A DNA stretch of 64,000 nucleotides. It comes from an uncultured Candidatus Saccharibacteria bacterium. Its GTDB lineage: Bacteria > Patescibacteriota > Minisyncoccia > Phycocordibacterales > UBA2100. Both the position numbers and the translations under genes were made by a program. Below are positions 4,504-54,805 of this stretch, piece after piece. The DNA lies in assembly GCA_964654205.1 (NCBI GenBank), contig CAZZHR010000002.1, forward strand, positions 1,800 through 65,799. Direction: 5' to 3'. A model generated the notes under the pieces. The model did not search any database and was not told the DNA's origin. It saw only the letters and a list, made by a program, of their open reading frames with translations. Position 1 is the first letter of the stretch; each line of letters opens with the position of its first letter.

Positions 4504-6723
4504 ATGGAGCCATCGCCTGCCCAGCCAGGGAAAGCCCCTGAGCCATTTCTAAAGCCATACGACCCGACTGCCTCGGAACCAGTGGTCAACGAACTCTGGG
4601 AGAAAAGCGGGTACGCAAATCCGGATGTCTGCATCGAAAAGGGTGTCACAAAGCCGGATGCCGATCCCTACACCATCGTCCTCCCTCCGCCGAACGTAAC
4701 TGGTACGCTCCACATGGGTCACGCGGCGATGCTCGCCATCGAGGACATCCTTATCCGCTACCACCGCATGCGCGGATACAAGACCCTGTGGATTCCCGGC
4801 ACCGACAGCGCCGCCATCGCGACGCAGGCAAAAGTAGAAGACGAGCTCTACAAGAAAGAGAAGAAGACGCGGCATGACTTGGGGCGCGATGAGCTCATGA
4901 AGCGCATCGATGCGTTTACCGACGAGAGCAAGAACATCATCATCAATCAGCTCAAGAGAATGGGTAGTTCACTCGATTGGAGCCGCTACGCATACACAAT
5001 GGACGAGCCAAGGTACAAGGCGGTGATGGAAGCATTTGTGCGCATGTACGACGCGGGGCTGATATATCGCGGCAACAGAATCGTGAACTGGGACCCGAAG
5101 CTCCAGACCACCGTGAGCGACGATGAGATTGAGTACGTCGAGAAAACCGACCCCTTCTACTATTTCCAGTACGGCCCCTTCGTTATAGGCACTGTGCGTC
5201 CCGAGACGAAATTTGGCGACAAGTACGTCGTGATGCACCCGGGCGATGAGCGGTACAAAGAGTACTCGCACGGCCAGACTATTGAGCTCGAGTGGATCAA
5301 CGGACCAATTACCGCCACTGTGATTAAAGACGAGGCCGTCGACCCCGAGGCCGGCTCCGGCGTCATGACGATAACCCCCGCGCACTCCAGCATCGACTTC
5401 GAGATTGCGCAGCGGCACAAGCTCGACATCGAGCCAGTAATCGATGAGCGCGGCATCTTGCTCCCTATCGCGGGCGAATTCGCGGGGCAGCACATCAAAA
5501 AAGCGCGCGCGCTGATTGTAGAGAAGCTGCAAAAGAAAGGCCTTGTTGTGAAAGTGGACGAAAAGTACGTCCACAATGTCGCGACCAACAGCCGCGGTGG
5601 TGGGACGATAGAGCCACAGATAAAAAAGCAGTGGTTTATCGCTGTAGCAAAGCCAGCGAAATTTCCCGATGGCAAGACCCGGACGCTCAAAGAGTGGATG
5701 CGCGAGGCGGTAGAAAGCGGCCAGACGAAAATTACGCCCGAACGCTACGAGCGCATCTACTATCACTGGATAGACAACCTCCGCGACTGGAACATTTCGC
5801 GCCAGATTTGGTTTGGCCACCGCATTCCCGCATGGTTTCGTGGCGATGAGGTTAAAGTGCAACTTGACCCGCCGGTTGGCGGACCGGGTGCAGAATGGCA
5901 GCAGGATCCCGACGTACTCGACACGTGGTTCTCATCAGGGCTCTGGACCTTTTCCACGCTCGGTTGGCCGGATGACAATGCAGACCTCAAGACATTCCAT
6001 CCAACATCGGTACTCGAAACTGGCTACGACATCCTCTTCTTCTGGGTCGCGCGCATGGTGCTCATGTCCGGATTCTTGCGGGGTGAAGTCCCCTTCCGCC
6101 AGGTCTACCTGCACGGGCTTGTGCGCGACGGACAGGGACGGAAAATGTCGAAGAGCCTCGGCAACATCATCGACCCGCTCGACATGATAAAGAAGTACGG
6201 CGCCGACGCGACGCGCCTCTCACTTATCGCTGGCTCTGCCCCCGGCACCGACCTCAAGCTTTCCGAAGACAAGGTCCGCGGGTACAAGAATTTCGCAAAC
6301 AAATTGTGGAACATCACGCGCTTTGTGTTGGAGAATCAGGACACTCAAGGTCCGACCTTGGGAATTCAAAAAGGTCGGACCTTGCACCCGGGGGACGAGC
6401 GAATTATAAACTTCGCGATCGGCGCGGCGATGCAAGCCGCGGCGGATATCGATAACTTCAGATTAGATATCGCTCTTGACCGTCTGTACCATGTCGTTTG
6501 GGACGAGTTTGCCGCAAAGACCCTTGAAGAGAGCAAGCCGATACTCAAGGGCGACGACAAGGCCGCGGCCGCGTCTCGAAGCGCTGCGCTCTACGAAGCA
6601 CTCGTCATTTACCTCAAAGCTCTTCACCCCTTCATGCCCTTCGTCACCGAAGCCATTTGGCAGCAATTGCCCAAGAAGGAATCCGACCTCCTCATGGTCG
6701 CAAAGTGGCCCCTGCTTCGCTAA
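4504..6723 (+). CDS. valS: Valine--tRNA ligase (compact, 739 aa)
   Basis: PPPNVTGTLHMGHA (HIGH motif, ValRS-type context) and KMSKSLGN; editing-domain-like middle region; lacks the long C-terminal coiled coil. Confidence 0.8.
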   Translation: MEPSPAQPGKAPEPFLKPYDPTASEPVVNELWEKSGYANPDVCIEKGVTKPDADPYTIVLPPPNVTGTLHMGHAAMLAIEDILIRYHRMRGYKTLWIPGTDSAAIATQAKVEDELYKKEKKTRHDLGRDELMKRIDAFTDESKNIIINQLKRMGSSLDWSRYAYTMDEPRYKAVMEAFVRMYDAGLIYRGNRIVNWDPKLQTTVSDDEIEYVEKTDPFYYFQYGPFVIGTVRPETKFGDKYVVMHPGDERYKEYSHGQTIELEWINGPITATVIKDEAVDPEAGSGVMTITPAHSSIDFEIAQRHKLDIEPVIDERGILLPIAGEFAGQHIKKARALIVEKLQKKGLVVKVDEKYVHNVATNSRGGGTIEPQIKKQWFIAVAKPAKFPDGKTRTLKEWMREAVESGQTKITPERYERIYYHWIDNLRDWNISRQIWFGHRIPAWFRGDEVKVQLDPPVGGPGAEWQQDPDVLDTWFSSGLWTFSTLGWPDDNADLKTFHPTSVLETGYDILFFWVARMVLMSGFLRGEVPFRQVYLHGLVRDGQGRKMSKSLGNIIDPLDMIKKYGADATRLSLIAGSAPGTDLKLSEDKVRGYKNFANKLWNITRFVLENQDTQGPTLGIQKGRTLHPGDERIINFAIGAAMQAAADIDNFRLDIALDRLYHVVWDEFAAKTLEESKPILKGDDKAAAASRSAALYEALVIYLKALHPFMPFVTEAIWQQLPKKESDLLMVAKWPLLR

Positions 6724-6765
6724 AGCTACGCAGGGCAGGCATAAAAACACATATATAATAGTCGA

Positions 6766-7488
6766 ATGCAGGAATTGCTCACGGTACTTGCTGCAGCCGC
6801 CGGCGGCGTGCTGCCGGCTCTCGCCTGGCTATGGTTCTGGCGACGCGAGGACAGTGCGCATCCGGAACCTCGCCGACTTATCGCCCTCGCCTTCTTTGCC
6901 GGCATGCTCACGGTAGCCGCCGTAATCCCGCTTCAGAAGCTGACCGCCGCATACATTAGCGAAGCGTATTTCTTTGTCGGGATTCTTTCGATTCAGACCC
7001 TGATTTTTACAGCCTGGTCTATCATCGAGGAAGTGGCTAAGTTTGTGTTCGCATATTTTACCGTCTTGCGCCGACGCGAAGACGACGAGCCGATAGACCC
7101 CGTGATTTACATGGTGACCGTCGCGCTTGGCTTTGCAGCCGCCGAGAACACCCTATTCCTCCTCTCCCCTCTCGCGGGAGATAGCCTCGTGCAGACTGTA
7201 ATGACGGGTAACTTGCGTTTTGTGGGTGCAACGCTGCTCCACATCCTCGCTTCAGCGGTTATCGGCGTCATGATGGGCTTTGCGTTTTATGAGAAAAGGC
7301 GTGTGCGCGTGTGGTACACGACCATCGGTGTTATCCTCGCCTGTGTTTTGCACGCCGCATTTAACTTTTTTATACTGAATACCGACGAGAGCGACCTCCT
7401 GCGCACCTTCGCCTTCGTCTGGCTGGGAGTCATACTACTCCTCGCTATCCTTGAATTTGTGAAGAGACTCCGCCCACGCTGGCGGTAA
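6766..7488 (+). CDS. PrsW-family intramembrane metalloprotease (CPBP-like)
   Basis: Polytopic membrane protein with the ordered motifs EEVAK (EExxK), FAAAEN (FxxxEN) and HAAFN (HxxxN). Confidence 0.55.
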   Translation: MQELLTVLAAAAGGVLPALAWLWFWRREDSAHPEPRRLIALAFFAGMLTVAAVIPLQKLTAAYISEAYFFVGILSIQTLIFTAWSIIEEVAKFVFAYFTVLRRREDDEPIDPVIYMVTVALGFAAAENTLFLLSPLAGDSLVQTVMTGNLRFVGATLLHILASAVIGVMMGFAFYEKRRVRVWYTTIGVILACVLHAAFNFFILNTDESDLLRTFAFVWLGVILLLAILEFVKRLRPRWR

Positions 7489-7505: not shown

Positions 7506-7991
7506 ATGATGAAATTCTTCTCAAAACTCACCGGCTCAGCCCAAGACTACGACGATTTTTTTGACGAGCCCGGCGGAGAGAAAACCCGATTCGAAGGCAA
7601 GGGCGAAGAGCGCCACGCACACATCACGCCTCGAGAGGAGTCGTGGACGCCCGAGGAGCCGGGAGGTGAGCTCGCGGTAGACGTGTACCAGACCCCTGAC
7701 AACATCGTCATCAAGGCACTCGTCGCAGGCGTGCAGCCTCAATCCATCGATATCTCTCTTACTCGTGAGATGGTGACCATCTCCGGCCAGCGCCAAGATG
7801 AAAAGGAAGTCGAGGAAGAGGACTACTTCCAGAAAGAGCTCTTCTGGGGCGCGTTCACCCGCACGATTCTCCTCCCCGAAGAAGTCGATGTAGACCTCGC
7901 GGAAGCGAGCGAGAAACACGGCATCCTGATGATTCGCCTACCCAAAATCAACAAAAAGCGCCAGACCAAGCTCAAAGTCCGCGCACGATAG
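7506..7991 (+). CDS. Small heat-shock protein, Hsp20/alpha-crystallin family
   Basis: Alpha-crystallin domain: VDVYQTPDNIVIKALVAGVQPQSIDISL...GAFTRTILLPEEVDVDLAEASEKHGILMIRLPK. Confidence 0.8.
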   Translation: MMKFFSKLTGSAQDYDDFFDEPGGEKTRFEGKGEERHAHITPREESWTPEEPGGELAVDVYQTPDNIVIKALVAGVQPQSIDISLTREMVTISGQRQDEKEVEEEDYFQKELFWGAFTRTILLPEEVDVDLAEASEKHGILMIRLPKINKKRQTKLKVRAR

Positions 7992-7992
7992 C

Positions 7993-8487
7993 ATGAAGCG
8001 CTTTTTTGCAGCGCTCGTTGCTTCACTTCTCCTCCTCCCCTCCTTCTCGCTCGCGGCCACCTGCATCGAGCGCAATGAAGAATGCTCTCTCGGGGAGCTC
8101 ATGGAGATAAACACAAGCGCGCGGGAAATCGGCCTTGCTCCTCATGAACACATCGCGGTGCTGCTCGAAATCATTTCCAACCTCCGCCGCATTATCACGA
8201 CGTTCCATGCCAACAAGGAAATCATCTACTGCGTGGACCTCAAGCACGACCTCAGGCCTGGCGCGACCGATGCGAAGACAGACGGGGGCGTGAGTACGCT
8301 GCAATTCTTCCTCACAAGCCAACGCGTCTACGACGGGCTCGTGACCGGCTACTACGGCACCGCGACCGCGGAGGCTGTATACGCTTGGCAACAACAGAAC
8401 AGCATCGAAGGCGTCACTCTGAGTACGGGCGCGGGACCTCTCACGAGAGCAAAGATACGCGCCGCAACCTGCGCGCTCGTGCAATAG
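7993..8487 (+). CDS. Secreted protein with C-terminal peptidoglycan-binding domain (PG_binding_1-like)
   Basis: Signal peptide MKRFFAALVASLLLLPSFSLA; C-terminus LQFFL..YDGLVTGYYGTATAEAVYAWQQQNSIEGVTLSTGAGPLT matches the PG_binding_1 pattern. Confidence 0.65.
   Translation: MKRFFAALVASLLLLPSFSLAATCIERNEECSLGELMEINTSAREIGLAPHEHIAVLLEIISNLRRIITTFHANKEIIYCVDLKHDLRPGATDAKTDGGVSTLQFFLTSQRVYDGLVTGYYGTATAEAVYAWQQQNSIEGVTLSTGAGPLTRAKIRAATCALVQ
8315..8369 (+). repeat. Core repeat, copy L (47 nt identical plus 7 of the next 8) shared with 9509-9563
   Basis: caagccaacgcgtctacgacgggctcgtgaccggctactacggcacc is identical at both sites; the sequence diverges downstream. Confidence 0.85.
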
Positions 8488-8534
8488 AGAAAAGCAGGGG
8501 GCGCGGCCCCATTCGATAGCCGCGCCCCAAGGTC

Positions 8535-9440
8535 TCACCAACCAGCGAGTCTGCGAACCTCGTTCACCATGCAAACCGCGTGACCTGGCTTACAGTCTGA
8601 CTTGAACGACCTGTCCGGCGTCAGGCCGGAACCCTGTACTTTCTCGCCGCCAGCAGTCCACTCGCCGCAGGTGATCACCGTATAGAATCCGCCGTGCGCA
8701 CTCGACGCGTGCGGGAGAGCACACTGAATGATTCCCTTCCCATACGTCTGTCTGCCGAGGATCGCACTCTGCTTCGGATAAAAATCGAAGCGAATGAGTG
8801 CGACGAGCCACTCAGCGGCAGAGGCAGACTTTTCGTCGGCGACAAGCACATACGTGAGGCCGGCGAGTACTCCCACCCGCTTCGATGTGTACCCCTTCCG
8901 CGTCGCGTCGTCTGCGCCGCTCGCTTGCATGTAGGTGATGCCCACAGCGGGCACGAAGAAGTCCTCGACTATCGCTGCGAGGAGCCCCTTCACGCCGCCC
9001 GGGTTGTCACGCACATCGACCACCACAACAGACGGGCGATTCTTGGCAAGAACGCTCTCGGTGTGGTACTGGAGACGGAGGGATTGGTGCACATTGCCGT
9101 AGAAGTGGGGGATTCTGATGTAGAGAAAATCCCCCACACTCTCAACGTGCGGATCCCCTTCGGGTTTTGCACGCTTCGGCCGTACGTGCAAGGTCGAGGC
9201 TGCGTCGAGACAACCCATCTCTCGCATGCGCGAATCGACCTCCTTCATCCAATCGAAGAAGGCCCAAGGATATACCGCGAGTGCATTCCGAAGGACACGA
9301 ACACACTGCGCTCGCTTGTGGGCGGGCAGGTAGACCGTGCGCTCGTACGCGCGGAGCAGCTGTTCGGTATCGAACGCACGGGCATACCCTGCCCCCGACA
9401 GCACATGCAGGCAGACGGCGAGCAACAGCACGATACGCAT
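8535..9440 (-). CDS. S41-family peptidase (C-terminal processing / tail-specific protease-like), secreted
   Basis: Signal peptide; VVVDVRDNPGG (S41 IIDLRxNxGG motif); catalytic Ser context ADEKSASAAEW; Lys in TYGKG; RBS GGGAGA. Confidence 0.7.
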   Translation of the reverse strand: MRIVLLLAVCLHVLSGAGYARAFDTEQLLRAYERTVYLPAHKRAQCVRVLRNALAVYPWAFFDWMKEVDSRMREMGCLDAASTLHVRPKRAKPEGDPHVESVGDFLYIRIPHFYGNVHQSLRLQYHTESVLAKNRPSVVVVDVRDNPGGVKGLLAAIVEDFFVPAVGITYMQASGADDATRKGYTSKRVGVLAGLTYVLVADEKSASAAEWLVALIRFDFYPKQSAILGRQTYGKGIIQCALPHASSAHGGFYTVITCGEWTAGGEKVQGSGLTPDRSFKSDCKPGHAVCMVNEVRRLAGW

Positions 9441-9504
9441 GGTGTTTCTCCCCTATGAGGCCGTAATGGCCTTTTCCATGACCATTTAAGCGCATCTGTG
9501 GCGC

Positions 9505-9681
9505 ATGGCAAGCCAACGCGTCTACGACGGGCTCGTGACCGGCTACTACGGCACCACGACCGCAAAGTACGTGTACGAGTGGCAAAGGCAGAACAACATC
9601 GAGGATGTGACGCCCGATACGGGGGTAGGCAAAATCACCCGCGAGAAGATACGCAGCGCAACCTGTGCGGTAGTGGAATAA
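9505..9681 (+). pseudogene. Orphan 3' fragment of a PG-binding-domain gene, paralogous to the end of 7993-8487
   Basis: 58-codon ORF MASQRVYDGLVTGYYGTTTAKYVYEWQRQNNIEDV...; about 75% nt identity to 8315-8487, with a 47-nt identical head. No N-terminal domain or signal peptide. Confidence 0.6.
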
Positions 9682-9755
9682 CCGCTTGACCCTATCCATA
9701 GCTCGGGTAGGCTGCTCCACTAGGAGCGGCTCAATCGCTCAATAGGGGGTAGCAC

Positions 9756-10391
9756 ATGCGATTCTTGCAGCAGTACTTCTTCCCGCAAATCCCGAACGGA
9801 CTCACATGTACTCGAATCGTCGTGGCGGTGATTATCGGATACTTCGCCGCACTCGAGTACGTGCACTTCGGGCCGCAAGCCGCTTCGGACATTTTCCATT
9901 GGAACCGAGTTGCGGCTCTCGTCCTGTATATGGTGTTCGCCTGCCTCACCGACGCGCTCGACGGCACTATCGCACGCAGGTATGGCTGGGTCTCCTCGAC
10001 CGGAGAATGGCTCGACCCGCTTGCCGACAAGGCTATCGCCATAGCGGTGCTCGGGTACGCATGGGTCATGTTCCATAGCTCAATGCAAGCGGTCGTGTAC
10101 TACGCAGTGTTCGTGCCGACCGTCATCTTCGTCGCTGCCTACAGCTGTGTTACGACTCTCCTGCGCATCTACGGAAAAGTGGGCGCTGCGAGCAAGACGG
10201 CACAGCGCAAGACCCTCGTACAGATGGTAGCGATGGGATTCTTCATCGTTGCGGGCGCACTCGAGCACGTAGCCCCAACGACATCGTCCATCTTGCTGTA
10301 CATCGGCATCCCGATTCTGGTCTACTCGGCCTGGCTCTGCGTACCATCGCTCGTTGGCTACCTGCGGCCAGCGTTTTGGCCCGCCAAGTGA
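9756..10391 (+). CDS. CDP-alcohol phosphatidyltransferase (PgsA-like)
   Basis: DALDGTIARRYGWVSSTGEWLDPLADK matches the family motif Dx2DGx2ARx8Gx3Dx3D; polytopic membrane protein. Confidence 0.7.
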   Translation: MRFLQQYFFPQIPNGLTCTRIVVAVIIGYFAALEYVHFGPQAASDIFHWNRVAALVLYMVFACLTDALDGTIARRYGWVSSTGEWLDPLADKAIAIAVLGYAWVMFHSSMQAVVYYAVFVPTVIFVAAYSCVTTLLRIYGKVGAASKTAQRKTLVQMVAMGFFIVAGALEHVAPTTSSILLYIGIPILVYSAWLCVPSLVGYLRPAFWPAK

Positions 10392-10413: not shown

Positions 10414-10440
10414 AAACGCGGCCTCACGGCCGCGTTTTTC
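10414..10440. terminator. Bidirectional intrinsic terminator between the pgsA-like and nuclease genes
   Basis: aaACGCGGCCtcacGGCCGCGTttttc. Confidence 0.65.
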
Positions 10441-11372
10441 TATTCCAGGAGCCCCAGGCGGTATATGTCGAAACTGTTCTCTCCCTCGAACATGTCCGAG
10501 GGATTTGGGAGGAATTTGCGCGGACGCATTATCTCTTCCGTCGCGTCGTTCAGGAGCCTGTGAAAGACCTCGAATTCGTGAGCGCATTTTTGGAAATCGA
10601 TGACGTAGCGCCGCAGCTGAGGCGAGCCATCGATGTTGCGGCTCTTTTTGCACTCGTACACCAGAAAGCGCCGCACTGGTTTTTTATACGAGTGGAGTAC
10701 GGTGTAGTAGTTGAAGAGGGCCTGCATCACGAAAAGCGTCTTTTGGTTCTTCTGCTTGCTAAAAGTATCGACGAACTTGTGGTCAACGATATCGAGCGCG
10801 TCCTTGTCGACTTTGGAGACGACGACGAGGTCGGATATCGCCTTGATGGGAAGGGGGAGTCCCTCGACCTCGGCGGTAGCCACGACTTCGACACCAAGCA
10901 CTTTGTGTTTCGGCGCCTTGTCCAGATAGAAGCTCACTGCCTGCAGGTAATCCCGCTCCATGAGCTCCCGCTTGCGCTTCTTATCGGTGCGAGAGCGCGC
11001 CTTGCCGAAATGTATCTCGAAATCCGGCACATCGCGCAGGTACGCGAGCCCAATATCGATGGCGGCTTCCCTACCGAGATCACCGTAGAAGTGCTGGAGC
11101 GCGACATGCCCCGCGCGGCCGATGACGGATGATGGGTTGGATGGCGTATCGCGGACATTCTCGACGTAGCGTTTGTACCAGGCGAGTTGGTTACGCAGGA
11201 ACGCCATGAGACTCGAGTGGCTCCAATGTGATATCGGCGGCTTCGGCTCCCTTCTCTTTGACCGTCTCACGGGACTCGCCCCATGAGAGACAGCGGCCAG
11301 ATCTCGGGCATCAGAGCGAACGTTGTTGTTCGACTTAAAAACGTGATTTCGACCTCGCCTTGCCTCTCTCAC
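10440..11372 (-). CDS. PD-(D/E)XK nuclease superfamily protein (RecB/Cas4-like nuclease domain); start uncertain
   Basis: N-terminal SHWSHSSLMAFLRNQLAWYKRY resembles the RecB-family nuclease N-terminal motif; D..D/ExK-like AISDLVVVSK...DIVDHKF. The ORF track uses a GTG start at 11372. Confidence 0.5.
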   Translation of the reverse strand: MREARRGRNHVFKSNNNVRSDARDLAAVSHGASPVRRSKRREPKPPISHWSHSSLMAFLRNQLAWYKRYVENVRDTPSNPSSVIGRAGHVALQHFYGDLGREAAIDIGLAYLRDVPDFEIHFGKARSRTDKKRKRELMERDYLQAVSFYLDKAPKHKVLGVEVVATAEVEGLPLPIKAISDLVVVSKVDKDALDIVDHKFVDTFSKQKNQKTLFVMQALFNYYTVLHSYKKPVRRFLVYECKKSRNIDGSPQLRRYVIDFQKCAHEFEVFHRLLNDATEEIMRPRKFLPNPSDMFEGENSFDIYRLGLLE

Positions 11373-11448
11373 GGGGCGAGTATACCCCGATTTGACGCTC
11401 GGCGCCTTCGGGATATAGCATGGAAATAGAATCCAACGGAGTCATACG

Positions 11449-11790
11449 ATGCGTGCATCAAAGGAGGGCGCACTGCGCGCGCTCTCAAAGCGCGTGTGGC
11501 AGGAATCCAAGAGAGTCCGCGCATCATGTAGCAGCTCCAGCGAACTCACCGCAGAGATTCGACATCGTGTTGCCAAACTCAAGGAAGAGACGCGGGAGTT
11601 CGGGATCGCGGCCATGCGCGAGTCCGACAGCAACGTAGCGGCGGAAAGCGCCGATGTGGTGTACCAGCTCTTTATCGTGCTCGCGCTCAGGAGCGTAAGC
11701 TATCGAGCGTTTCGTGCGGCGCTTATCAGTCAACTCGATCAGAAACGCCCCCACCGCCAAAACACGCGGAAGCGCAAACAGGCACCCTGA
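11449..11790 (+). CDS. MazG/HisE-like nucleoside-triphosphate pyrophosphohydrolase (PRA-PH fold)
   Basis: EFGIAAMRESDSNVAAESADVVYQLFIVLALRSVSYRAFRAALISQLD matches the HisE/MazG EExxDxxYhLLVLL helix pair; promoter-like TTGACG-16-TATAGC and RBS GGAG upstream. Confidence 0.5.
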   Translation: MRASKEGALRALSKRVWQESKRVRASCSSSSELTAEIRHRVAKLKEETREFGIAAMRESDSNVAAESADVVYQLFIVLALRSVSYRAFRAALISQLDQKRPHRQNTRKRKQAP

Positions 11791-11823
11791 CGCCGGGCGG
11801 CAACGCCCGGCTGAATCTTTTGT
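11791..11823 (+). terminator. Intrinsic terminator after the MazG-like gene
   Basis: GCCGGGCggcaacGCCCGGC followed by tgaatcttttt. Confidence 0.65.
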
Positions 11824-11939
11824 ACCCGACACTCATGGCTAGGACTCCCCTAGCCATGCACTAAGCAAGTCGGCTGGCTAGGACTCCCCTAGAGAGGAGA
11901 GCCTGCCTTCGACAAATATCAAATGGCAAACCTGTGATA

Positions 11940-11968
11940 TTGACGTCTCTGCGCGTACGTGATATGAT
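11940..11968 (+). promoter_or_regulatory. Near-consensus sigma-70 promoter: TTGACG, 17-nt spacer, TATGAT
   Basis: AT-rich island in a GC-rich genome; followed by RBS aaggaaaggaggg and an ATG at 12001. Confidence 0.6.
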
Positions 11969-12000
11969 ACAAATTTGTACATTAAGGAAAGGAGGGCTCA

Positions 12001-12270
12001 ATGCGCTTTTTCGTTGCAGTGCATCTCAGCACGGACGGCAAATCACCCGATAGCGATGATACCTGTTGCCACAAGAACGTGAACTGGTCGATCGTGCCAG
12101 CCATCGGAGACCAGGTCCAATTCGCCGATGATGATTTCATGCCAGTCGTGGCGAGATACCATAAGCGTATCAAAGGACGGCCAGCGATCATGATAGACGT
12201 GCTGGCAGATCCATGTGCGTTCGAACGCGTCTCGAAGAAGAGAGGTTGGAAGCAGGGACCTGCGTTCTAA
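12001..12270 (+). CDS. Small Cys-containing hypothetical protein (89 aa) with its own strong promoter and terminator
   Basis: Canonical promoter, strong RBS and an intrinsic terminator flank the ORF. No recognisable domain (MRFFVAVHLSTDGKSPDSDDTCCHKNVNW...). Confidence 0.5.
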   Translation: MRFFVAVHLSTDGKSPDSDDTCCHKNVNWSIVPAIGDQVQFADDDFMPVVARYHKRIKGRPAIMIDVLADPCAFERVSKKRGWKQGPAF

Positions 12271-12289
12271 TTTTCAAGATCCTCTACTG

Positions 12290-12326
12290 AAAAGGCCGGG
12301 CATGTCGCCCGGCCTTTTGATTTTTA
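12290..12326. terminator. Bidirectional intrinsic terminator between 12001-12270 and rpoD
   Basis: aaaaGGCCGGGCatgtcGCCCGGCCttttgattttt. Confidence 0.8.
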
Positions 12327-12328
12327 TA

Positions 12329-26327: not shown

Positions 26328-26400
26328 ATCTATCGTGCTATTCAGAGTAATGAAAACATTGTACGATTGCTGACATCGGGCGTCAACCTCACCTATCAGA

Positions 26401-26436
26401 CTCCTGCAAATTCACCAATTGGTGGATTTACAGGAG
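26401..26436. promoter_or_regulatory. 36-nt near-palindromic element, copy 1
   Basis: 31/36 identical to 54654-54689; core TTCACCAATTGGTGGA flanked by ctcctg/caggag arms; lies between rpsP and khpA. Confidence 0.7.
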
Positions 26437-26473
26437 TGAATCGTTTCCGAGGCTCGAGGTCGTTCTCGATGAA

Positions 26474-38002: not shown

Positions 38003-38572
38003 CTAAGCCAAACCGAAGTCGCGCTTGAGAGAAGCTTCCCCCTCAAGCTCTTGCACGACCATGTATCGCATCTTGTAGCCGATACGCCACTCAGATTTCA
38101 AAAGTGCGACTAAGTCTTCACAATTGTACGGAAACACCCAGACGCTGTCCTGAAGTCGCACGAAACCAAGGTGCCTGAGCATTTCCCGGATGCGATCGCG
38201 CAGTCGACGGTTCTTCTCTGGAATGTCAAAAATAAGCACTCGCCACTTCCCGTCCCATTTTTTCTGATTCCGTGCCTGAAGGTCTGCCACACTTTGCAAC
38301 CTCTCGAGCTCGCGCGCACCGAGCGCTGTCAGGCGCAAGCCCGCTGCCTCCCGCCGAGCATACCCCTTTTCGACGAGTCGCCGGTATGTGCGCCTCATAC
38401 TCTCGCCCTGTCGCGGACCAGGGACTAGTCCGAGTCGCTTCAGACCTTGCACTGCATTTGGAGCCGCAATAGCAATCGCGAGCAGTCCGCCTAATTTGAG
38501 CGTCTCGAGTGCGACCTGTTGAATTTTCTCTTTTCTCGAACGCGATGCACCTCTCTCCTCCAATCGCCCCAT
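38003..38572 (-). CDS. PaaX-family-like transcriptional regulator, paralog 1 (190 aa)
   Basis: GLRLTALGARELERLQ...WDGKWRVLIFDIPEKNRRLRDRIREMLRHLGFVRLQDSVWVFPY parallels PaaX (GLRLTRRAESK..WDGKW) and has a Cas2/VapD-like core. Start set at MGRLEERG by alignment to paralog 2. Confidence 0.55.
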   Translation of the reverse strand: MGRLEERGASRSRKEKIQQVALETLKLGGLLAIAIAAPNAVQGLKRLGLVPGPRQGESMRRTYRRLVEKGYARREAAGLRLTALGARELERLQSVADLQARNQKKWDGKWRVLIFDIPEKNRRLRDRIREMLRHLGFVRLQDSVWVFPYNCEDLVALLKSEWRIGYKMRYMVVQELEGEASLKRDFGLA

Positions 38573-38612
38573 ACACCAAGTATATACGACCGTGGGGTAT
38601 TGGTGTATTGGG
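38567..38612 (-). promoter_or_regulatory. Element B: the same 37-bp inverted-repeat element, overlapping the start codon and -10 region of PaaX-like gene 1
   Basis: cccCATacaccaagtatatacgaccgtggggtattggtgtat; TATACT box 6 nt before the ATG suggests a leaderless transcript. Confidence 0.65.
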
Positions 38613-38746
38613 TAAGATGGAAATGCGGGGGTGTCTGCGACCGTCAGCTCAGCGGTCGATTGCGACAACGCGAAAGCCCCGGCGTATGCCGGGGCTTTGC
38701 GTTCACTTGTTTCCCTCTTTCGAGAGCTTGGAGCGGGCGGCGGCGT

Positions 38747-40069
38747 TTAGGCGCGCGAGATGACGAGACGCGGCGTGCCGTAGGCATCGCGAGTCACCTT
38801 CATCGCATCGCGGGTCATCGAATCGCTAGTCGGAAGCTCGAAGTGATTAGCCTTGACCTCCTGGGTCGTGGCTACCTCTTCTGTCTGCTCCTCTGCTCGA
38901 CTGCGCGAAATCATCGAAGTCGCGAGCGCGAGAGCGCCACCCTTGTAGTAGACGAGGAGGTAGCTACCCGCTATCGCGAGAGCGATGAGGCCAGCCCAGT
39001 ACGCGATGTTCGCGATAGGACCGAGTGTCAGACCCGTGTACGGAATCTGCGTGAGCGAGACGTACGGAGAGACTGGCGCCGCCGGAGCAACGTAGCTCTG
39101 CGTGTGACACGTGTACGTGCCGCCAGGACCGGAGACCGTGAGCGAGTAGACCGTGTTGCCGTAGGCGTAGAGCGAAGTAGAACCATTCGGAGCGACCTGA
39201 CCGACCGACGGCGTGATGTACGCGCTGGTGACAAGTCCCTGCGAACTCCACGTGAGCGTAATCATGCCTGTCGTGTAGTAGCCCTGGCCAATCGTGATGA
39301 CACAGTACGGAGCCTGGGCCTGCGGATAGACAGGGTAGCTCGGGTACACAGGGTAGCTCGGAGCGACATACTGCACTATCGGCTGCGGGTTCGCCTGCGT
39401 GACGGTCGTCACGTTGGTGTTCACGTTGGTGTTCGTGTTCACGTTGCAGCTGTTGTTGACGCAGTTGTTATTCGTCACTGGAGGCTGCGGCGCAGGCGGG
39501 ATGTATACCGGCGGCTGCGGCCTCGGAGGCTGCTGCGGCGGGTAGCTCGGGTACGAGGGGAAGCTCGGGAAGGAAGGCGTCGAGAACTTCGGAGGCACAA
39601 TGCTCATCGGGCTCGAGAACGGCTTGAAGCTGTAGCTTTCGTACTGTCCACACGAATAGCAGTCGTCGAGCGGGTAGGACCAATCATTACCCATGTCGTA
39701 GGACCAGTCACAGGTATAACAGTCGTCGAGCGGGTAGGACCAGTCACTGCCGATGTCGTACGACCAGTCGTTACCCATGTCGTACGACCAGTCGCTACCC
39801 ATGTCGTACGACCAGTCGCTACCCATGTCGTACGACCAGTCGCTACCCATGTCGTACGACCAGTCGCTTCCCATGTCGTAGGACCAATCATTACCCATGT
39901 CGTACGACCAGTCGCTGCCCATGTCGTAGGACCAATCGCTGCCCATGTCGTAGGACCAGTCTTCCCCATCGGCGTGTGCAATCGTGGCAAATGCGCCGAA
40001 AGAAAGCGCTGCCGCAATCGCGACCACTGTGAGACCAAAGAGCAGGTTTCTTATTGATGCATTTGTCAT
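38747..40069 (-). CDS. Secreted or surface protein with about 12 tandem DWSYDMGS octapeptide repeats, a Pro/Tyr-rich linker, an IPYTG motif followed by a TM segment, and a cytoplasmic tail
   Basis: Signal peptide; 24-bp in-frame tandem repeats; PSYPVYP repeats; IPYTG then LTLGPIANIAYWAGLIALAIAGSYLLVYYK. Confidence 0.7.
   Translation of the reverse strand: MTNASIRNLLFGLTVVAIAAALSFGAFATIAHADGEDWSYDMGSDWSYDMGSDWSYDMGNDWSYDMGSDWSYDMGSDWSYDMGSDWSYDMGSDWSYDMGNDWSYDIGSDWSYPLDDCYTCDWSYDMGNDWSYPLDDCYSCGQYESYSFKPFSSPMSIVPPKFSTPSFPSFPSYPSYPPQQPPRPQPPVYIPPAPQPPVTNNNCVNNSCNVNTNTNVNTNVTTVTQANPQPIVQYVAPSYPVYPSYPVYPQAQAPYCVITIGQGYYTTGMITLTWSSQGLVTSAYITPSVGQVAPNGSTSLYAYGNTVYSLTVSGPGGTYTCHTQSYVAPAAPVSPYVSLTQIPYTGLTLGPIANIAYWAGLIALAIAGSYLLVYYKGGALALATSMISRSRAEEQTEEVATTQEVKANHFELPTSDSMTRDAMKVTRDAYGTPRLVISRA
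39626..39961 (-). repeat. 24-bp in-frame tandem repeats encoding DWSYDMGS
   Basis: Period 24 nt, about 12 units with wobble variation; no spacers. Confidence 0.85.
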
Positions 40070-49130: not shown

Positions 49131-49159
49131 GTTATAGCGAACGTATAGCATTTACATCA
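49131..49159 (-). promoter_or_regulatory. Element C, downstream copy: TATAGCGAA-N3-ATAGCAT, overlapping the stop of PaaX-like gene 2
   Basis: gttatagcgaacgtatagcatttaca; same orientation as 49736-49764. Confidence 0.65.
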
Positions 49160-49729
49160 TTTCCCTTTCAGACCGAAATGTTTGCGTAAATCCTCATCAC
49201 CCTCTATCTCGTCAACAATCATATAGCGGACTGCCCTTCCGATGTGTAGATCAGCCTTCACGAGTGAAACAAAATCTTCAACATCGTAGGGGAAAACCCA
49301 TACGCTATCCTGCAACATAAGAAAGCCGATGTGTCGGAGAGTCCTACGGATCTTATCCCTATCTGCTTTCCGATGTTCGGGGATATCAAAGATGAGCACA
49401 CGCCACCTGCCGTCCCAACGACGCGGCACGTCCCCTCGCATCAATGCCTCATGTAGATCCAGCTCTTTCCGGCCTCGGTCAGTCAATCGAAGCCCTTTCT
49501 CCGTGCTACGAATGTGTCCAGAGGCGATTAATCGCTTTCGCGCTCGATTAATCGTTGAGGAATCTTGCGGAGACCTCTCAAGGAGTCCCAATTTGTACAA
49601 ACTTTGGACCGCATTCGGTGCTGCCAAAACAAATCCTGTGATTGCAGCCACTTTGACCGCCGCGAGTAATGCGAACTTGATATCTCTTTTCCGCTTACGG
49701 ATCCTCCCTCGTATTTCTACCTCGCCCAT
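49157..49729 (-). CDS. PaaX-family-like transcriptional regulator, paralog 2 (190 aa)
   Basis: APNAVQ..GLRLTDRGRKELDLHE..RWDGRWRVLIFDIPEHRKADRDKIRRTLRHIGFLMLQDSVWVFPY; collinear with 38003-38572. Confidence 0.55.
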   Translation of the reverse strand: MGEVEIRGRIRKRKRDIKFALLAAVKVAAITGFVLAAPNAVQSLYKLGLLERSPQDSSTINRARKRLIASGHIRSTEKGLRLTDRGRKELDLHEALMRGDVPRRWDGRWRVLIFDIPEHRKADRDKIRRTLRHIGFLMLQDSVWVFPYDVEDFVSLVKADLHIGRAVRYMIVDEIEGDEDLRKHFGLKGK

Positions 49730-54611: not shown

Positions 54612-54653
54612 CAGTATATCCCACGGGCGCTCAAATTCTACGTAAATGGGTCA

Positions 54654-54689
54654 CTCCTGTATTTTCACCAATTGGTGAATTTACTGGAG
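54654..54689. promoter_or_regulatory. 36-nt near-palindromic element, copy 2 (extends to a 42-bp palindrome, 54651-54692), 40 nt upstream of pheS
   Basis: ctcctgtattttcaccaattggtgaatttactggag; perfect 16-bp core TTCACCAATTGGTGAA. Confidence 0.7.
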
Positions 54690-54805
54690 TGAGATATTCA
54701 ACCACCGATAGCAACAGGGTTGGAGAATGAGAGCTGCGCAGCCTCCCCATGATGACAGGGTCGCATCGACACGATGCAGCGCTCGAGCCCAGTTCCAATG
54801 AAAAG

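Follow-up and report, generated by a model that had tools for sequence, protein, structure and literature searches.

An S41 peptidase gene inserted together with a probable replacement gene end at a peptidoglycan-binding protein locus of a Candidatus Saccharibacteria chromosome

We analyzed a 64,000-nt stretch of DNA, hereafter the window, from an uncultured Candidatus Saccharibacteria bacterium (GenBank assembly GCA_964654205.1, contig CAZZHR010000002.1, positions 1,800 to 65,799 of the forward strand). It contains a gene for a secreted peptidoglycan (PG)-binding protein whose 3' end is present twice, the two copies being separated by a single gene, encoding a peptidase of the S41 family, on the opposite strand. 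The copies form a direct repeat (8315-8486 and 9509-9680, spacing 1194 nt), which was recovered by two independent repeat searches and is the sole long dispersed direct repeat in the window. An earlier note on this stretch had placed the repeat at 8315-8487 and 9509-9681 with only the oppositely oriented S41 gene in between, and both points were borne out. The note had also described the first 47 nt as identical, along with seven of the next eight. Base-by-base comparison gives the same picture: all 47 nt match in this part of the repeat, which we call the core, position 8362 is mismatched, the following 7 nt match, and the last 118 nt of the repeat are 65% identical. The 126-nt segments that follow the two cores, tail A in the first copy and tail B in the second, are 66.7% identical in nucleotide sequence, without indels and in a common reading frame. 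The tails have thus diverged within the same frame and domain as the note had it, its figure of about 70% being slightly high. When translated, the repeat copies (TSQRVYDGLVTGYYGT... and ASQRVYDGLVTGYYGT...) show 69% amino acid identity. The 47-mer of the core has two exact copies in the window and no more when three mismatches are tolerated, and it was found in none of 100 shuffles.

As for the PG-binding gene, it is intact and encodes a protein with a signal-peptide-like N-terminus followed by a PG_binding_1 domain (PF01471; residues 98-141, profile positions 3-45, 28.8 bits against a Pfam cut-off of 23). This is a complete three-helix domain and the sole Pfam match in the protein, for which a profile search found no relative in the PDB. 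Eleven homologues, with 61-80% amino acid identity, always lie between a gene for Hsp20 and one for a CDP-alcohol phosphatidyltransferase (CDP-OH_P_transf). On the far side of the peptidase gene, tail B is part of a nominal open reading frame (ORF) of 58 codons (9505-9681), the ATG of which is contributed by the insert side and the frame of which is closed by a TAA at 9487. The product of this ORF would have a truncated PG_binding_1 domain (profile positions 17-46), scoring 22.9 bits, just under the cut-off of 23.

Comparison with related loci shows that the peptidase segment is an insertion. The locus was recovered from metagenome-assembled genomes (MAGs) of Candidatus Saccharibacteria (L001-L004 from JGI; L005, L006 and L012 from NCBI and Logan; and L009, L010, L011, L013, L016, L017, L018 and L102), in which the gene order ValRS, PrsW, Hsp20, PG-binding gene, CDP-OH_P_transf, PDDEXK is kept. 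Exactly one tail is present in 11 of 11 related loci, and a peptidase lies between the PG-binding gene and CDP-OH_P_transf in none of them. Since the orthologous loci are single-tailed and have no peptidase at this place, the segment has been inserted, which is what the earlier note had proposed. The pattern expected of an old tandem paralog, with two tails in every orthologue and uniform divergence along the repeat, is not what we found: the 11 relatives have a single tail, and the core is identical at 47 of 47 positions. The 74 nt past tail B align with the counterpart spacer in six relatives, the promoter of the CDP-OH_P_transf gene beginning a few bases past the stop codon. Tail B is contiguous with this conserved intergenic promoter and is therefore in the ancestral position. 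Parsimony, together with synteny with the conserved promoter, argues for tail B, and not tail A, as the resident end. On this polarity, the gene would formerly have ended in the second tail and the inserted DNA has supplied tail A as an in-frame replacement end, both of which the note had anticipated. The features of the locus are listed in Table 1.

Table 1. Positions of the features at the insertion locus (window coordinates, except where a relative is named)
Feature	Position	Strand	Remarks
Hsp20 gene	7506-7991		Pfam
Secreted PG-binding protein gene, 164 aa	7993-8487	+	Intact: resident N-terminal part, core, replacement tail A
Core copy 1	8315-8361	+	Encodes (T)SQRVYDGLVTGYYGT; last codon ACC (Thr)
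Tail A, replacement 3' end attached to the gene	8362-8487	+	Probably foreign (sister lineage)
Terminator hairpin core and T-run	8495-8511	-	GC-rich, full stem 8498-8528; terminator-like site search
S41 peptidase gene, 301 aa	8535-9440	-	Signal-peptide-like N-terminus; Pfam PF03572, 55.1 bits, cut-off 24
Spacer x, 68 nt, upstream of the S41 start	9441-9508	.	Carries Shine-Dalgarno GGGGAG
Core copy 2	9509-9555	+	Identical to 8315-8361
Tail B, displaced 3' end	9556-9681	+	Resident under the preferred polarity; promoterless gene fragment
Ancestral intergenic region	9682-9755	+	TTGACC-N17-TAGGCT promoter of the CDP-OH_P_transf gene; aligns with the spacer of 6 relatives
CDP-alcohol phosphatidyltransferase gene	9756-10391	+	Right neighbor; Pfam PF01066
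PD-(D/E)XK nuclease gene	10440-11372		Pfam
S41 gene in the relatives' slot, L009	6215-7117	-	
S41 gene in the relatives' slot, L016	1756-2646	+	
S41 gene in the relatives' slot, L102	1560-3573 region		Plus zinc alcohol dehydrogenase

The two copies of the core have a common origin. Their identity is beyond chance, 47 identical nt being expected with a probability of ~0.0016 at 87% identity (0.87^47) and ~5e-9 at the identity of the tails (0.667^47). It is also beyond conservation, because the same 47 nt differ at eight positions in L001 (83% identity) and at six in L005 (87% identity), the closest orthologues, and the longest identical run across the whole orthologous genes is 17-25 nt. Moreover, both cores end with ACC, a Thr codon (GYYG-T), where 11 of 11 relatives have Pro (GYYGP or GFYGP). 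This derived codon is common to both cores, which are therefore of single origin. The pattern suggests either that one core served as the source of the other, by copying or conversion, or that the partners were near-conspecific to the left of position 8362. When folded and compared with shuffled sequences, the core shows no notable secondary structure (z = -1.0).

Both tails have diverged as working coding sequence. Nei-Gojobori counts for tail A against tail B give synonymous and nonsynonymous differences of pS 0.63 and pN 0.24, with an omega of 0.21, from which this conclusion follows. By comparison, omega is 0.17 for tail B against L005, and 0.20 for L001 against L005, which are functional orthologues. 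No pseudogene decay is evident in tail B, and this state of its sequence points to a gene end that was probably in use until lately and to an insertion that would be recent. Over the 126 nt, tail A is 71-72% and tail B 74-75% identical to L001 and L005; over the whole repeat, the values are 77-79% for copy B and 74-76% for copy A. In neighbor-joining trees of the 126-nt tails, the clade formed by A, B, L001 and L005 has a bootstrap value of 99%, with A and B pairing as sisters in just 4% of the replicates. Tail A is therefore a fourth, unsampled lineage of this clade and not an in-genome duplicate.

Most parsimoniously, the foreign DNA extends from approximately 8362 to 9508 (1.15 kb) and consists of tail A, a terminator and the S41 gene along with the 68 nt of DNA upstream of it. 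In the 47 nt past tail A (8488-8534), which are unrelated to the conserved intergenic promoter region, there is a 10-bp stem (-15.4 kcal/mol, z = -4.6) with its T-run on the S41 strand. We consider this hairpin to be the predicted terminator that separates the PG-binding gene from the S41 gene convergent to it; as such it would belong to the insert. Spacer x, at the other end of the S41 gene, resembles neither the rest of the locus nor the sequence that lies upstream of S41 in L009 and in L016, and no recognizable sigma-70-like promoter for S41 was found within it. The spacer folds better than shuffled sequences (z = -2.5), and a small, interrupted hairpin (9482-9508; CCAT..GCGC-7 nt-GCGC ATGG) ends exactly at its junction with the second core. 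The insert is bounded by two junctions, a homologous and in-frame one at 8361/8362 and a non-homologous one between x and the core at 9508/9509, with 47 nt of target on either side.

The S41 protein retains the Ser and Lys motifs of its family, SASAAEW and YGKGIIQ, which we take to carry the catalytic dyad by comparison with S430 and K455 of Prc. Residues A206-S207-A208-A209-E210-W211 and T232-Y233-G234-K235 are invariant in a three-member alignment. Pfam found no PDZ domain in the protein, its TIGR00225 score of 61.6 bits is well under the cut-off of 218.6, and profile matches to the CtpA, CtpB, D1P and Prc structures cover only residues ~98-280, that is, the catalytic domain. The N-terminal region of ~100 residues is family-specific. 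In its base composition (GC content 0.60, and 0.71 at third codon positions), the gene is like neighboring host genes. A word-indexed search of 5.8 billion proteins returned no close relative, and no S41 relative or donor closer than 36% identity was found in a scan of JGI metagenomes or in a HMMER scan of 1.84 billion representatives. In the latter, the PDZ-less family amounts to 28 representative clusters at E <= 1e-30, mostly of ~290-320 residues. The nearest relatives are 31-36% identical over their full length (~300 residues) and come from the same neighborhood. The three that were placed on contigs (L009, L016 and L102) occupy a different slot, the one that separates CDP-OH_P_transf from PDDEXK. 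In L009 and L016, no repeats or tail remnants above shuffle background were found around the S41 gene. As far as sequence and placement indicate, in this group of bacteria the peptidase is an accessory gene associated with the locus and not exotic cargo. The family (window 8535-9440, P0142-P0166) is apparently undescribed; it has the motifs CLD.YS, DLR.N.GG, TASAAEW, YGKAIIQC and TCGEW, and a C-terminal C...C. S41 enzymes act at protein C-termini and, in several bacteria, target cell-wall hydrolases. That the peptidase might be functionally linked to the tail it came with is speculation, and no correlation of S41 presence with tail sequence was found among the relatives.

The earlier note had read the arrangement as the result of site-specific integration, had taken the insert for a decayed or trans-mobilized cargo cassette, and had suggested that the 47-mer might recur as an attachment core. 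Its statement that no recombinase is present held, since Pfam found no recombinase or transposase domain in the insert or in 37 ORFs of the window, a scan that leaves some 20 other ORFs and the rest of the genome outside. The proposal of site-specific integration found no positive evidence: no recombinase was found, the core is not reused, and the two cores share their Thr codon. Nor did the cassette reading hold up, as the insert has no phage or plasmid relative and the S41 family is native to the neighborhood. Recurrence of the core was equally unsupported. Beyond the two copies in the window, none was found in the viral contigs of IMG/VR, which were searched with a 32-mer from the core, and scans for the core peptide motif (…Y[DSP][GE][LI][VI]TG[YF]YG…) in 185,579 species genomes (GTDB) and in JGI metagenomes gave ordinary single-tail genes only, the exact 47-mer DNA scan not having been run on these two collections.

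Other kinds of mobile DNA were tried and rejected. The window is core chromosome, with genes for ValRS, TsaD, RpoD, DnaG, UppS, TrmD, SMC, RNase III, NusB, RNase HII, S2 and RF1. As for cargo of a phage or plasmid, the insert has no DNA match in phages and none in IMG/VR, and the S41 matches in phages and plasmids are distant and partial, with less than 33% identity. A tRNA-linked island is not indicated, the only tRNA genes of the window being at 606 and 57199, and Rfam finds nothing else. For an integron cassette, there is neither an IntI among the scanned ORFs nor an attC-like palindrome, the sole strong hairpin being the terminator between the convergent genes. The repeat is also not the template/variable repeat pair of a diversity-generating retroelement: no reverse transcriptase is present in the ORFs scanned, and the mismatches are not adenine-specific, tail B having the base A at 18 of the 42 tail mismatches and tail A at 9. 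An identical core is present at both ends of the insert, which is not diagnostic since homologous recombination yields the same. There is no evidence of a mobile element, and we read the locus as an ordinary scar of horizontal transfer.

The surroundings of the insert are, judging from the sequences compared, evidently a recombination mosaic in which exchange between related lineages would be frequent and leaves no att-like scars. The CDP-OH_P_transf protein has 83% amino acid identity to that of L001 (L001:6581-7219), 30% to that of L005 (L005:4053-4727) and 29-33% to those of the other relatives; the Hsp20 protein is 94-96% identical to both L001 and L005, and 79-96% identical over the relatives. 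This looks like a set of deep allelic classes of CDP-OH_P_transf that may have been swapped by recombination between conserved flanks. DNA homology to L005 ends at 9713 and restarts at 10379. To the left of the insertion, in 4504-7488, ValRS is 90% identical to L005 in nucleotide sequence and the adjoining PrsW 80%, a contrast that suggests further recombination breakpoints there. To the right, the region from PDDEXK to rpoD (11273-12328) is not alignable among the relatives, save for a conserved 33-nt terminator hairpin at 11792-11824. A PRA-PH/MazG-like ORF (11449-11790) lies in the same region, where the 18-nt sequence TGGCTAGGACTCCCCTAG is also directly repeated without mismatch (11836-11853 and 11875-11892). 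Accessory genes vary in the slot before PDDEXK, with S41 in L009, L016 and L102 and alcohol dehydrogenase in L102. With its PG-binding protein, hypervariable CDP-OH_P_transf and variable S41, the locus looks like a hot spot of cell-envelope diversification, which could bear on host attachment or phage interaction of these epibionts.

The explanation that we favor, with a confidence a little above even, is that the insertion was a single event guided by homology, of the "C-terminal displacement" type, in a non-toxin gene of a Saccharibacteria chromosome. The recipient would have started with Hsp20, a PG-binding gene ending in tail B, the promoter and CDP-OH_P_transf. The donor would have been an unsampled sister lineage with a PDZ-less S41 gene convergent to its PG-binding gene. 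Both this donor gene order and the recombination pathway are what we infer from the present arrangement. Donor DNA would have paired with the recipient gene via the homologous 3' region, and the left exchange would have resolved at 8361/8362, the gene from then on running in frame into tail A, followed by the terminator, S41 and the 68 nt of upstream DNA. On the right side, a non-homologous join at 9508/9509 would have led to a second copy of the recipient's 47 nt and then to tail B, left untouched. Conceivable routes are one crossover that involves a circular intermediate, ends-in or gap repair, which would make both cores recipient-type, and a template switch that recopied the 47 nt. Mere replacement by a linear strand would be insufficient, because it cannot duplicate the target. 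Host recombination functions would be required, a dedicated integrase would not. The outcome would be an intact PG-binding gene with 42 new C-terminal residues, the gain of a secreted S41 peptidase, and tail B left over without expression. In principle, recombination across the 47-bp direct repeat could remove the 1,194-bp unit precisely and so restore the original gene.

Several points weigh against this explanation. It concerns a single event, and neither the donor nor a conspecific empty site was found among the sampled sequences. In a search for such an empty site by exact look-up of the Hsp20 and CDP-OH_P_transf proteins of the window, only k=31 contigs were returned, from the same two runs and broken inside the core. 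These contigs cannot phase the core, and the integrated arrangement, hence the presumed physical state of the insert, is taken from the assembled contig. The incoming side is assigned by parsimony only, the distance to the orthologues being much the same for both tails. Reciprocal crossing over with a diverged donor is not enough to render the cores identical, unless there was gap repair, conversion or recopying, or the donor was near-conspecific. The origin of the non-homologous junction between x and the core is unexplained, which is the same gap as in the model for rhs loci discussed below. Finally, 47 bp is close to the lower limit for efficient homologous recombination.

Two other explanations retain the idea of acquired DNA. 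Were the insertion site-specific, attP would consist of x, core and tail A, and the integrase would since have been deleted or be encoded elsewhere (compare e14 and phage 21 at icd, or integrase-less cis-mobilizable elements). This would account for the identical 47-bp core flanking the insert and the element-borne, in-frame replacement end that follows it, and for the orthologous loci without insertion; the small hairpin right at the x|core junction and k=31 contigs that are compatible with a circular form are also in its favor. We consider it unlikely, given that neither the insert nor the 37 ORFs of this 64-kb core-chromosome window encode a recombinase, that core reuse and phage or plasmid relatives were found nowhere searched, that the core is without notable structure, that the cargo family is native to the locus and that other gene-content changes at the locus have no att-like repeats. 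In addition, a lineage-specific Thr codon in both cores is unexpected for independent attP and attB. Alternatively, the polarity may be reversed, tail A and S41 being original and the stretch comprising core, tail B, promoter and CDP-OH_P_transf, possibly more, having been imported by homology-facilitated illegitimate recombination. The anchor would then lie on the right (PDDEXK side) and the illegitimate left end at 9508/9509, with a fragment of the donor's PG-binding gene carried as a passenger. The flanks are discordant in the manner expected, the left one being nearer L005 (ValRS 90% vs 79%) and the right one L001-type (CDP-OH_P_transf 78% vs 53% in nucleotide sequence, 3' end of rpoD 88% vs 84%); however, this discordance could equally stem from exchanges in L005 or L001. 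A linear fragment would suffice, the pathway is documented (PMC5361080), and the equal distance of tails A and B from the orthologues also speaks for it. Yet reversed polarity needs an unsampled convergent PG-binding/S41 order as the ancestral one, both closest relatives being without S41, and leaves the 47/47 core and the shared Thr codon unexplained unless the donor was near-conspecific. We regard it as about as unlikely as site-specific integration.

Two further explanations were weighed. An old tandem duplication, either of the gene end alone or of a longer unit that took in S41, followed by deletions and then gene conversion of the first 47 nt, would naturally yield a junction of the x|core type. 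From an L009-type order, doubling of a unit made of core, tail, promoter, CDP-OH_P_transf and S41 and loss of the redundant copies would lead to the observed order. However, two tails are present in none of the 11 relatives, A and B are sisters in 4% of bootstraps, each lying within the clade with L001 and L005, and tail B lacks the relaxed constraint expected after a long time as a pseudogene. Several independent losses would be required, as well as a conversion tract ending exactly at the homology boundary. Such a history is very improbable and is largely refuted by the comparative loci. Highly improbable is an artifact of assembly or population structure, in which an uninterrupted gene with the N-terminal part, core and tail B and, apart from it, a 1,194-bp unit in circular or tandem form (core, tail A, S41 and x), or a mixture of strains, would have been threaded into one path. 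Logan contigs built with k=31 break off after exactly 30 nt of the core at each of the four core edges, with L101 ending at 8344, L007 covering 8332-9538 and L099 beginning at 9526, and contig L008 of run SRR15237806 breaks at 8448, a hint of a co-occurring variant. These contigs reproduce the insert exactly, and their breaks are as expected for k=31 assembly at a 47-nt repeat; they do not tell integration apart from an empty site accompanied by a circle. Against an artifact, the x|core junction is present in two independent runs (L007 and L008), the 167.6-kb NCBI contig passes through both copies, and a 1.2-kb circle without a replication gene could not persist alone. The contig of a related MAG, seemingly a product of the same study, is named in the NODE style of SPAdes, which suggests that SPAdes k-mers longer than 47 were used. 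As a separate observation, L008 corresponds to window 8448-9538, and its start at 8448 instead of 8332 implies that the 30-mer 8448-8477 of tail A is also present in another sequence of that sample, which may come from a co-occurring variant or a donor-like strain. Run SRR15237806 also contains the S41-less relative L006.

If the favored C-terminal displacement is correct, the locus is a clean, datable case of gene-content change in a reduced, uncultivated Saccharibacteria genome without mobile-element machinery, in which an accessory gene would have entered with the 3' end of a neighboring gene as its homology handle. It also illustrates that an identical core followed by a diverged replacement end does not by itself identify site-specific integration. 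The locus would be a single recombination scar of known kind and opens no new mechanism. A more far-reaching version, which we consider very unlikely, is that the 1,194-bp unit is a reversible, integrase-independent swap module, in which S41 travels with the matching tail of its PG-binding substrate and recombination between the cores toggles the locus between tail A with the peptidase and tail B without it, freeing a transferable circle. If true, this would extend C-terminal displacement beyond polymorphic toxins, in a bacterium of the Candidate Phyla Radiation (CPR).

Elsewhere in the window, we noted further features. At 39649-40009 there are ~14 tandem 24-nt units, within a 512-residue plus-strand ORF without a Pfam match; in one frame of the minus strand they give 8-residue repeats (…MGSDWSYD… as read; translated frame TGRTTWVA), and either strand may be the coding one. 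A 40-nt, internally palindromic sequence, ACTCCTGCAAATTCACCAATTGGTGGATTTACAGGAGTGA, is present at 26400-26439 and 54653-54692, 28 kb apart, with 88% identity. A PaaX_M (Cas2-like) domain was found in the proteins encoded at 38003-38668 and 49157-49729, both on the minus strand, one of which also has a weak CRISPR_Cas2 match; no CRISPR array was noticed.

Among known systems, prophages e14 and phage 21 in the 3' end of Escherichia coli icd come to mind. As Hill, Gray & Brody in 1989 and Campbell and co-workers in 1992 reportedly found, they supply an in-frame, slightly different replacement end and leave the original end as a downstream pseudo-fragment. The likeness is that the 3' end of a protein-coding gene is hit, a replacement end is supplied and the old end is left. 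In contrast to these prophages, which are at least 15 kb long, encode a tyrosine integrase of their own next to att and reuse their site repeatedly, the insert described here is 1.15 kb long and has one gene, no recombinase and no recurrence. As for the peptidase, it shares a homologous catalytic domain and the Ser/Lys motifs with CtpA, CtpB and Prc/Tsp; unlike these S41 enzymes, it has ~300 residues and no PDZ domain.

A direct repeat flanking the insert is also what Campbell-type integration of a circle by a single crossover produces, for example with suicide plasmids or the Neisseria pilE/pilS circles cited in PMC2935791, in that the homologous segment is doubled on both sides. Such integration is RecA-dependent and can be reversed by recombination between the repeats. 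At the present locus, however, no circle was observed, and the homology is short and diverged (173 nt, ~70-85% identical outside the core). A different precedent is the displacement of effector-immunity modules of the T6SS (type VI secretion system) in Vibrio cholerae, for which the proposed pathway is homology-facilitated illegitimate recombination (Kirchberger et al. 2017, PMC5361080). Here too a single homologous anchor is paired with a single illegitimate junction, the old DNA downstream has been kept, the place is a hot spot of exchange between relatives and no integrase is involved. In Vibrio, however, the old effector is largely replaced and the immunity genes persist, whereas the PG-binding locus has kept its whole old tail and 47 nt of target are duplicated. 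Because of this duplication, simple strand replacement of the Vibrio type is insufficient for the case at hand.

The closest parallel that we compared is the C-terminal displacement described for rhs loci by Jackson et al. (2009, PMC2935791), to which the orphan cdiA-CT/cdiI and rhs-CT modules are analogous. At rhs loci, distinct tips are each preceded by an identical core fragment, which has been explained by recombination of the RecA type, in which the intermediate is circular, the donors are closely related and no integrase takes part; how the circle first forms was left open in that model (PMC2935791). The likeness lies in a new tip with a passenger gene on an intact gene, the old tip having been shunted downstream behind an identical core fragment. 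The differences from rhs and contact-dependent growth inhibition (CDI) systems are nevertheless clear. The gene encodes a 164-residue PG-binding protein, without YD repeats, CdiA scaffold or toxin domain, and its tips are homologous (69% amino acid identity), unlike the unrelated tips of rhs and CDI genes. The passenger gene encodes an S41 peptidase and runs on the opposite strand, in place of a co-directional immunity gene, and past tail B there is only the ancestral neighbor gene. What we describe is thus a single displaced tip behind a 47-nt core, in a CPR bacterium.

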